Below, in pieces: positions 2,834-5,691 of a stretch of 5,691 nt of DNA. The notes beneath the pieces were generated by a model, which saw only the letters and a program-made list of their open reading frames with translations, was not told the DNA's origin and made no database searches. Within the stretch, counting starts at the first letter, position 1, and each line of letters begins with the position of its first letter. A program made the position numbers and the translations under genes. Source of the stretch: a virus (taxonomy: Duplodnaviria > Heunggongvirae > Uroviricota > Caudoviricetes); the IMG/VR virus record IMGVR_UViG_2703718869_000017, one strand, 5' to 3'.

Positions 2834-2870
2834 AAGCGAAAAAATCCCGCAGTGACCGAAGGCTGCGGGA
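2831..2870 (-). terminator. Candidate rho-independent terminator oriented for the minus strand, directly after the I stop codon
   Basis: Inverted repeat CCCGCAG (2846-2852) / CTGCGGG (2863-2869) with a 10-nt loop. Read on the minus strand the hairpin is followed by AUUUUUUCGCUUUUA (complement of 2831-2845) and its loop contains C-UUCG-G. On the + strand the hairpin is followed by AACAGAAAAUG, with no U-tract. Confidence 0.5.
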
Positions 2871-2886
2871 ACAGAAAATGAAGATT
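2871..2886. repeat. Left copy of a direct repeat (ACAGAAAATG + AAGAT)
   Basis: The 10-mer ACAGAAAATG at 2871-2880 is identical to 2961-2970; the following AAGAT also recurs after a 2-nt TG insertion in the right copy. Confidence 0.55.
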
Positions 2887-2960
2887 AACCACAGGGAGTT
2901 TTGTTTTTATTGGCCCGAAAAAACTGTAACGCCCGGGAATGATATCTGCCACGGGGGCGT

Positions 2961-2978
2961 ACAGAAAATGTGAAGATA
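2961..2978. repeat. Right copy of the direct repeat (ACAGAAAATG + TG + AAGAT)
   Basis: Identical 10-mer 90 bp downstream of the left copy. In this copy the ATG is immediately followed by TGA. Confidence 0.55.
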
Positions 2979-3003
2979 TTCAGAATTTTTATTCAGTCAT
3001 GAT

Positions 3004-3039
3004 ACAGGCATCCTCCGGGATGCCTGTTGTTTTTGTGCG
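3004..3039 (+). terminator. Candidate rho-independent terminator or attenuator hairpin on the + strand, ~30 nt upstream of the J start codon
   Basis: Perfect 10-bp inverted repeat ACAGGCATCC (3004-3013) / GGATGCCTGT (3018-3027) with 4-nt loop TCCG, followed by TGTTTTTGTG (3028-3037). On the minus strand the same hairpin is followed by AUCAUGACUG, with no U-tract. Confidence 0.5.
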
Positions 3040-3068
3040 TAACAGTTATCACAGTAAAGGGTGAGACA

Positions 3069-5691
3069 ATGGGCAAAGGTGGCGGCAGGGCGCACACGCC
3101 GGTTGAGGCAAAGGACAATCTTAAGTCCACGCAGATGATGAGCGTGATTGACGCCATCGGTGAGGGACCGGTGGAAGGTCCGGTGAAGGGGCTGCAGAGT
3201 ATCCTGGTGAACAAAACCCCGCTGACGGACACGGACGGTAATCCTGTGATAAACGGTGTGACTGCGGTCTGGCGTGCCGGGGAGCAGGAGCAGACACCAC
3301 CGGAAGGTTTTGAGTCCTCCGGAGCTGAAACCGCACTGGGCGTGGAAGTGACGAAGGCAAAGCCGGTGACGCGCACCATTACGTCCGCGAACATTGACCG
3401 CCTGCGGGTCACCTTCGGGGTGCAGTCACTGGTGGAGACCACCTCAAAGGGCGACCGTAATCCCTCTTCTGTCCGACTGCTGATTCAGTTGCAGCGTAAC
3501 GGTAACTGGGTGACGGAAAAGGATGTCACCATTAACGGCAAGACCACCTCACAGTACCTGGCGTCGGTGATTCTGGAGAATCTGCCTGAGCGGCCCTTTA
3601 ACATCCGGATGGTCCGGGAGACAGCGGACAGCACCACGGACCAGCTGCAGAATAAGACGCTCTGGTCGTCATACACCGAAATCATCGATGTGAAACAGTG
3701 CTACCCGAACACGGCCATTGTGGGGCTGCAGGTGGATGCGGAGCAGTTTGGCGGTCAGCAGATGACGGTGAACTACCATATCCGCGGTCGCATCATCCAG
3801 GTACCGTCAAACTATGACCCGGAAAAACGCACGTACAGCGGCATCTGGGACGGCAGCCTGAAACCGGCATACAGCAACAACCCTGCCTGGTGCCTGTGGG
3901 ACATGCTGACTCACCCGCGCTACGGCATGGGAAAACGTCTGGGGGCGGCAGACGTGGACAAATGGGCGCTGTATGCCATTGCGCAGTACTGCGACCAGAC
4001 GGTCCCGGATGGTTTCGGGGGCACAGAGCCGCGGATGACCTTTAATGCGTACCTGTCACAACAGCGTAAGGCGTGGGACGTTCTCAGTGATTTCTGCTCG
4101 GCGATGCGCTGTATGCCGGTATGGAACGGCCAGACGCTGACGTTCGTTCAGGACCGTCCGTCGGATGTGGTGTGGCCGTACACCAACAGCGATGTGGTGG
4201 TGGATGATAACGGCGTGGGGTTCCGCTACAGCTTCAGCGCCCTGAAGGACCGCCACACGGCGGTGGAGGTGAATTACACCGACCCGCAGAACGGCTGGCA
4301 GACCTCCACGGAACTGGTGGAAGACCCGGAAGCCATACTGCGCTACGGGCGCAACCTGCTGAAGATGGATGCGTTCGGTTGCACCAGTCGCGGTCAGGCC
4401 CACCGTGCCGGGCTGTGGGTGATAAAGACCGGACTGCTGAAGCAGACGGTGGATTTCACGCTCGGGTCACAGGGGCTGCGTCACACACCCGGTGACATTA
4501 TTGAAATCTGTGATAACGACTATGCCGGGACCATGACCGGCGGACGTATCCTGTCCATCGATGCCGCCAGCCGCACCCTGACACTGGACCGTGAGGTGAC
4601 CCTGCCGGAGACAGGTGCCGCCACGGTGAACCTGATTAACGGCAGCGGTAAGCCGGTGAGTGTGGACATCACCGCACACCCCGCGCCGGACCGGATACAG
4701 GTCAGTACCCTGCCGGATGGCGTGGAGACATACGGTGTGTGGGGACTCTCCCTGCCGTCACTGCGTCGTCGCCTGTTCCGCTGTGTCTCCATCCGGGAAA
4801 ACACGGACGGCACCTTTGCCATCACGGCAGTGCAGCACGTACCGGAAAAAGAAGCCATCGTGGATAACGGGGCGCACTTTGACGGCGACCAGAGCGGCAC
4901 CCTGAACAGCGTCATCCCGCCGGCAGTGCAGCACCTGACGGTGGAGGTGAGCGCGGCTGACGGCCAGTATCTGGCACAGGCGAAATGGGACACGCCGCGG
5001 GTGGTGAAGGGTGTGCGCTTCAGTCTGCGCCTGACCAGCGGAAGCGGAGAAGACAGACGTCTGGTGACCACCGCCATCACTGCGGATACAGAGCACCGTT
5101 TCAGTGGTCTGCCGCCCGGGGAATACACCCTGACAGTCAGGGCAATTAACAGTTATGGCCAGCAGGGCGAACCGGCCACCACCACGTTCAGGATTAATGC
5201 ACCTGCGGTACCCGCCACGATTGAGCTGACACCGGGCTATTTTCAGATAACAGCGGTCCCGCGTCTTGCGGTGTATGACCCGACGGTACAGTTTGAGTTC
5301 TGGTTTTCGGAGACAAAAATCGCAGACACATCTCAGGTGGAAACCTCTGCCCGTTATCTGGGGACCGGCAGTCAGTGGAGTGTATCCGGCCCGCACATTA
5401 AGCCCGGGAAGGATTTCTGGTTTTATGTGCGCAGCGTCAACCTGGTGGGGAAATCTGCTTTTGTGGAAGCCAGTGGCCGGGCCAGCAATGATGCAGAAGG
5501 GTATCTGGGGCTGTTTCGGGAAAAAATAGGAAAACTGCATCTGGCTCAGGGGCTGTGGGAGCTGATAGACAACAGCCAGCTTGCGGATGAGATGGCGGAG
5601 ATGAAGACCAGCATCACCGAAACCCGCAATGAAATCACACAGACGGTCAGTAAAACACTGGAGAACCAGAGCGCCACCATACAGCAGATAC
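3069..5691 (+). CDS. J: Host specificity protein J (central tail fibre / tip attachment protein), N-terminal ~874 codons; 3' end lies outside the window
   Basis: ATG at 3069 is the first ATG after an in-frame TGA at 3000-3002; AAGGGTGAG lies upstream. The frame stays open to the window end. Translation [39 protein letters not shown]...[15 protein letters not shown]...[33 protein letters not shown]...[24 protein letters not shown]...[16 protein letters not shown]...[38 protein letters not shown]... is colinear with lambda gpJ as recalled, including FN3-like repeats. Confidence 0.94.

Follow-up and report, generated by a model that had tools for sequence, protein, structure and literature searches.

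The window (the whole 5,691-nt stretch of viral DNA analysed here) carries on its plus strand a lambdoid tail operon in which the tail assembly gene I (2252-2833 in the ORF list, annotated as 'tail assembly protein' in homologous records, with a longer ORF from 2153) is followed by the 5' part of J, the tail tip / host specificity gene (3070-5691, annotated as J in homologous records). In keeping with the preliminary description of this DNA the tail genes are tightly packed: M, L and K adjoin closely, and K overlaps I (by 4 nt with the short I start of related records, and by ~100 nt with the ATG at 2153). Between the TAA of I (2831-2833) and the ATG of J (3070) lies a spacer of 236 nt (2834-3069), as against an I-J gap of 60 nt in lambda (15445-15504), which agrees with the value given in the preliminary description when it called the spacer enlarged. 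The spacer is AT-richer than the neighbouring genes, as had also been claimed (GC 0.465-0.47 in the 200-nt windows that overlap it, which partly hold flanking gene sequence, vs 0.56-0.63 in the flanks), and both the 10-nt direct repeat ACAGAAAATG (copies at 2871-2880 and 2961-2970) and the 31-codon ORF (2878-2973, plus strand) noticed earlier are present in it. Taken together, extra DNA between neighbouring genes, a terminator of its own and a deviant composition are the marks of a lambdoid moron; relative to lambda the segment is indeed additional, an insert that behaves autonomously among conserved late genes.

Judged by homology, the payload of the spacer is a diverged allele of the published small RNA (sRNA) family PasB / EcOnc22-24, and the part of the window that had been set aside as unexplained by known tail genes is the locus of that family. 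The gene (~80 nt, 2838-2919, minus strand, antisense to the tail operon) was located by covariance model and by blastn. The model was made with the window allele left out, from eight sequences that represent different alleles (PasB of E2348/69 and EcOnc22 of Sakai among them). It matched the minus strand at 2919->2838 over its full length (positions 1-81 of 81) with 54.9 bits (E = 5.9e-10), its scores on other loci lying between 57 and 99 bits; a search of lambda with the same model gave no match, the sRNA element being absent from that phage. At the sequence level, blastn aligned the 83-nt PasB with window positions 2911->2839 (80% identity over 75 nt, E = 7e-13), the differences falling in the 5' third and in the terminator loop, and megablast with 28-nt words found nothing between the two. 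The window copy is thus homologous to PasB both by sequence and by profile. In Rfam 15 there was no match at E <= 10 around the spacer and none at gathering score in the whole window. When the spacers of the window, Sakai Sp15, E2348/69 and eleven phages were aligned, a single common architecture emerged.

The family has been characterised through two sets of alleles. PasB is an 83-nt RNA encoded on the minus strand of NC_011601.1 (1466343->1466261), in prophage PP6 of EPEC O127:H6 E2348/69; it was verified by northern blot, shows a log2 fold change of -6.8 in a delta-hfq background and has 37 partners reported by RIL-seq (Pearl Mizrahi et al. 2021, PMC8550237). In that genome the plus strand carries both the end of I (1466255) and the start of J (1466496). 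PasB is therefore located within the I-J spacer and runs opposite to the tail genes, six bases separating its 3' end from the I stop. EcOnc22, EcOnc23 and EcOnc24 are homologous Hfq-CRAC peaks in the prophages Sp15, Sp14 and Sp11 of EHEC O157:H7 Sakai, and EcOnc22 gave a northern band of ~85 nt that was destabilised without Hfq (Tree et al. 2014, PMC4104026). All three map to the I-J spacers of their prophages, on the strand opposite to the tail genes. The same intergenic regions could be identified independently of coordinates in Table S1B of the Hfq-CRAC study, where, out of the intergenic regions bound by Hfq, ECs2942...ECs2945 ranks 49, ECs2718...ECs2721 ranks 40 and ECs2161...ECs2162 ranks 48 (PMC4104026), and within them the two read columns given per sample (presumably the strands) differ ~100-fold.

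Placing the EcOnc22 peak within its spacer depends on which Sakai record is used. Relative to NC_002695.2, the 2014 coordinates are offset by ~0 at 1.18 Mb (landmark EcOnc52, the PasA homologue), by +139 at 1.94 Mb (the AgvB1 sequence) and by +136 at 2.92 Mb (EcOnc42 vs its homologue EcOnc21). After correction the peak occupies the I-proximal half of the spacer, i.e. the position of PasB; a reading on its J-proximal half (3046->2986), obtained with uncorrected coordinates on NC_002695.2, was dropped because the published coordinates belong to the older Sakai record. Naive mapping of the 2014 sRNA coordinates will misplace sRNAs for the same reason. The J gene of Sp15 and that of Sp14 are each split in the annotation into two overlapping CDS (ECs_2943/2944 and ECs_2719/2720), suggesting a frameshift in both, though the adjoining sRNA locus is Hfq-bound.

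The window shares the geometry of E2348/69 and of Sakai Sp11, Sp14 and Sp15: its sRNA gene occupies the I-J spacer on the strand opposite to I and J, and its 3' end adjoins the I stop. With PasB of E2348/69 it also has in common the terminator stem and a length of ~80 nt. EcOnc22-24, which fall into the same alignment and model, constitute a separate allele that differs in the 5' part, the loop and the sequence of the promoter region.

The intrinsic terminator of the sRNA (2839-2870, minus strand) comprises an 8-bp stem (2870-2863 / 2852-2845) and a following U6 tract (2844-2839), as the fold shows, and the minus-strand 3' end predicted earlier for 2839-2845 agrees with its position. The stem (CCCGCAG/CTGCGGG) is unchanged in 10 alleles and the loop is variable; being invariant, the stem offers no covariation support, and covariation in both the sRNA-terminator and the plus-strand hairpins was too sparse for significance. 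The present analysis demonstrates homology, position, strand and terminator for the window sRNA. Folded as a whole, the sRNA scores no better than shuffled sequences (z = -0.45), as is usual for short sRNAs. Directly upstream of the terminator lies the candidate seed, the core UUAAUCUUCAU (2888->2878, minus strand), which is the best-conserved stretch of the sRNA body: it is unpaired in the fold, and in two alignments its AAUCUUC is invariant, the other positions varying in some alleles. PasB of E2348/69 has the closely similar UUGAUCUUCAU just upstream of its terminator, and a seed has been proposed for PasB at the position of this core (Zhu, Shabalina & Storz 2026 preprint). An 11-mer from the 5' region of E2348/69 PasB, AACAAAAACAA, recurs in the window at 3026-3036 on the minus strand, within the T-run of the plus-strand hairpin described below, and is similar to the CA-rich motifs of GcvB targets.

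Upstream of the sRNA unit we place its putative promoter region (2920-3003, minus strand), which includes two -10-like boxes and an AT-rich conserved block (2966-3003). Box 2 (TACAGT 2928-2923 with GTGGCA 2952-2947) and box 1 (TATCAT 2944-2939 with TTTTCT 2968-2963) are conserved in position, and box 1 reads TATAAT in most alleles; none of 10 alleles departs from the key -10 positions (TA...T) of either box, and GTGGC shows little or no variation. Box 2 stands 6-7 nt ahead of the 5' end reported for PasB, with GTGGC(A) 18 nt further upstream, and box 1 would imply a start near 2932 and an RNA of ~95 nt that needs trimming. Each box reaches ~8 of 12 consensus matches when its -35 is counted, and a consensus promoter scan of the window returned no site at 9/12 matches; since neither attains the scan threshold, the promoter is a putative one, with either box as its candidate -10 element. 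A natural variant is available in Sakai Sp4, where sodC replaces everything upstream of box 2 and the sRNA unit is intact (80.3 bits). The same upstream half gave a weak second full-length match to the sRNA model (2920-3004, minus strand, 12.4 bits, E = 0.18), placed head-to-tail upstream of the first. The weak match recurs, again weakly, in other alleles, and the two copies of the 10-nt repeat lie inside the two head-to-tail matches. A tandem copy of the sRNA unit, since degenerated, may have given rise to the promoter half.

On the strand of the tail genes, a terminator-like hairpin with a T-run occupies 3004-3037, immediately before J. Its arms (3004-3013 / 3018-3027) form 10 bp with 100% complementarity and are followed by TGTTTTTGTG; the fold has a free energy of -20.4 kcal/mol (z = -3.98), which 0 of 200 shuffles equalled. 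Across seven alleles 98.6% of the cells are paired, with one change from C:G to U:A by way of a U:G intermediate, and a covariation test on these alleles was not significant. The preliminary description had taken two hairpins of opposite polarity as brackets of the inserted DNA. Both hairpins exist, but the plus-strand one does not bound the insert, for lambda has its own: the 60-nt lambda spacer (positions 746-805 of the lambda locus analysed) holds a GC-rich hairpin and T-run on the late-gene strand, just upstream of J (AAACCGCC TGCG GGCGGTTT TGTCATTT; -21 kcal/mol, z = -2.8). Alleles with a replaced right half of the spacer likewise carry a GC hairpin and T-run of their own. We read the hairpin at 3004-3037, on this comparative sequence evidence, as a probable older feature of the tail operon and not as a boundary of the insert; it might serve as a stop for transcription that is not antiterminated or, as another possibility, as a 3' end that stabilises mRNA. 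In phages 569R3 and ASU11 and in E. coli JJ1887, a longer and different sequence takes the place of the J-proximal half and the spacer measures 342 nt; in the 569R3 and ASU11 records it brings a different plus-strand hairpin and an annotated ORF of 66-77 aa that overlaps the J start.

The spacer is by no means rare. By megablast it was found at 2275 places in 706 of the 5426 complete E. coli genomes, many of them at 100% identity, and a more sensitive search returned related spacers, matching at the level of the family, at 4829 places in 1330 of the 5426 genomes (up to 10 per genome). The window allele itself accounts for 1551 places in 464 of these genomes (median 3, up to eight per genome), and none of its best five matches listed carries an annotation at the sRNA site; E. 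coli O26:H11 11368 and O157 PV15-279 are examples of strains with this allele. The two alleles differ in copy number, that of PasB being mostly single-copy and that of the window multicopy: megablast placed the E2348/69 allele at 999 places in 956 genomes (median one per genome). The counts for the E2348/69 allele agree with the picture drawn by the published PasB survey, which, using 28-nt words within Escherichia, reported 1,158 hits that were mostly single, came mostly from non-EHEC strains and included variants differing by few nucleotides. Given that word length, the survey should miss the window allele within E. coli; since this allele is multicopy and would have escaped it, the sRNA family is larger and more multicopy in EHEC/STEC than reported, and its portrayal of PasB as an sRNA that occurs mostly in single copy and in non-EHEC strains may be incomplete.

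Among phage records the spacer is nearly confined to Stx-converting phages and related lambdoid ones, with no match in lambda. A pattern scan over one genome per species yielded 21 matches, of which only 5 are homologous to the window, the rest being chance terminator-like sequences. Two of the five lie on E. albertii contigs and three on short contigs assigned to Parendozoicomonas haliclonae, Streptomyces flavalbus and a Clostridiales MAG; these last are 82-99% identical to the E. coli prophage tail region and probably represent contamination or mis-binning. Apart from the three suspect contigs, E. albertii was the only species representative beyond E. coli with a homologous match.

Other prophage-borne elements resemble the window locus in part. 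The sRNA HnrS (EcOnc10-12), of which prophages supply multiple copies, represses hha (Poudyal et al. 2026, PMC13502914), and it is, like the window sRNA, short, of the Hfq-associated type and present once per lambdoid prophage, for which reason it reaches up to ~9 copies per EHEC genome. Its locus is flanked by the endopeptidase gene on one side and the packaging genes on the other (in Sp10, EcOnc11 has the endopeptidase gene and ECs_1967 as neighbours), whereas that of the window sRNA is the I-J spacer, and HnrS was rejected as its identity on this ground. Only EcOnc10-12 were named HnrS, and EcOnc22 and EcOnc23 go unmentioned in that paper (PMC13502914). AgvB and AsxR (RF02702, RF02703) are, like the PasB family, prophage-borne Hfq sRNAs whose 3' part is conserved and whose 5' part varies. 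AgvB was our first guess because the minus strand has a CA-rich run, CACAAAAACAACAGG; it was discarded, as AgvB and AsxR sit at the PR' moron site and not at I-J, and the window has no Rfam match. EcOnc08/21/42 were set aside for being located at the tRNA/PR' region.

The sodC moron of Sakai Sp4 is likewise extra DNA between late genes, on the opposite strand and with its own terminator, but its payload is a protein gene and that of the window an RNA. The Sp4 spacer (NC_002695.2 1202487-1203337) measures 851 nt and contains sodC_1 (Cu/Zn superoxide dismutase) in antisense together with an intact PasB-family unit by the I stop, the sodC insertion having removed the conserved upstream block and the plus-strand hairpin. 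Because this spacer holds the sodC_1 insertion, the I-J junction can be regarded as a moron hot spot, and its description as a genuine moron site is borne out.

We consider it highly probable (about 0.88) that the spacer contains an autonomous minus-strand gene for an Hfq-binding, trans-acting sRNA of the PasB / EcOnc22-24 family with its own promoter, and that the plus-strand hairpin is separate from it. Transcription would begin at a weak sigma-70-type promoter inside the spacer (~2920-2970), proceed towards gene I and end at the intrinsic terminator next to the I stop codon; the product would be an RNA of ~80 nt (~2918->2839). In the lysogen, the core UUAAUCUUCAU and the variable 5' part would then pair on Hfq with host and island mRNAs. 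The plus-strand hairpin (3004-3037) would be an older tail-operon feature common to lambda, tolerated, as we propose, because late transcription is antiterminated. Transcript, size and Hfq dependence have been established for the E2348/69 and Sakai alleles (PMC8550237, PMC4104026); for the window allele we infer transcription, exact start site and targets from its sequence.

A broader reading, to which we would give tentative credence at most, takes the I-J sRNAs as a multi-allelic and multicopy family (the window allele, EcOnc22-24, Sp4/Stx2c and others), far larger than the survey indicates and with up to 10 loci per EHEC genome. Since the 5' part varies from allele to allele, co-resident prophages could supply one cell with a set of related regulators whose targets are partly different; the sRNAs may in addition act in cis on the I-J mRNA, and the promoter half might be their tandem duplicate.

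It is rather improbable that the sRNA acts mainly in cis, tuning the processing of the I-J mRNA or the I:J ratio, or hindering superinfecting relatives. Fully antisense within the late operon, it has perfect complementarity with the late I-J mRNA and occupies the same position in all alleles examined, and active Stx phages, like prophages, have retained the locus; yet the complementary stretch ends >150 nt upstream of the J ribosome-binding site, which speaks against such a role. Any cis effect would stand beside the 37 RIL-seq partners of PasB.

Among the candidates for the payload named in the preliminary description, the small RNA proved correct and the micro-protein fails. The latter would be translated from the late tail mRNA through the plus-strand ORF at 2878-2973, which we judge to be non-coding, as its start and length are not conserved. 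Although several alleles share its first residues (MKIN.xEL/F) and a 32-aa hypothetical protein is annotated at its position in one phage record, 3 of 10 distinct alleles have ACG in place of the start codon ATG, the peptides vary between 15 and 39 aa (15, 16, 22, 31, 32 and 39), their C-terminal halves are unrelated and in different frames, and the conserved N-terminal codons coincide with the antisense sRNA core. With neither start codon nor frames conserved among alleles, a micro-protein is very unlikely.

Least credible of all is a type I toxin-antitoxin-like pair, in which a small-ORF mRNA ending at the 3004-3037 terminator would be repressed by the antisense sRNA: the sRNA does overlap the ORF start and RBS region and both terminators point outward, but the peptides are hydrophilic and unconserved where a conserved small hydrophobic toxin would be expected, some alleles miss the start codon, the promoter scan found no plus-strand promoter-like site, and the Sakai Hfq-CRAC reads are concentrated in one column, presumably that of the antisense strand.

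The feature itself is therefore already known, PasB and EcOnc22-24 having been published, and the window copy is a diverged, abundant and unannotated allele of it. It ranks among the most abundant RNA genes of Shiga-toxin E. coli that lack an annotation, and the example of HnrS, which is likewise carried by prophages in multiple copies and relieves Hha silencing, indicates that such RNAs can matter for virulence.
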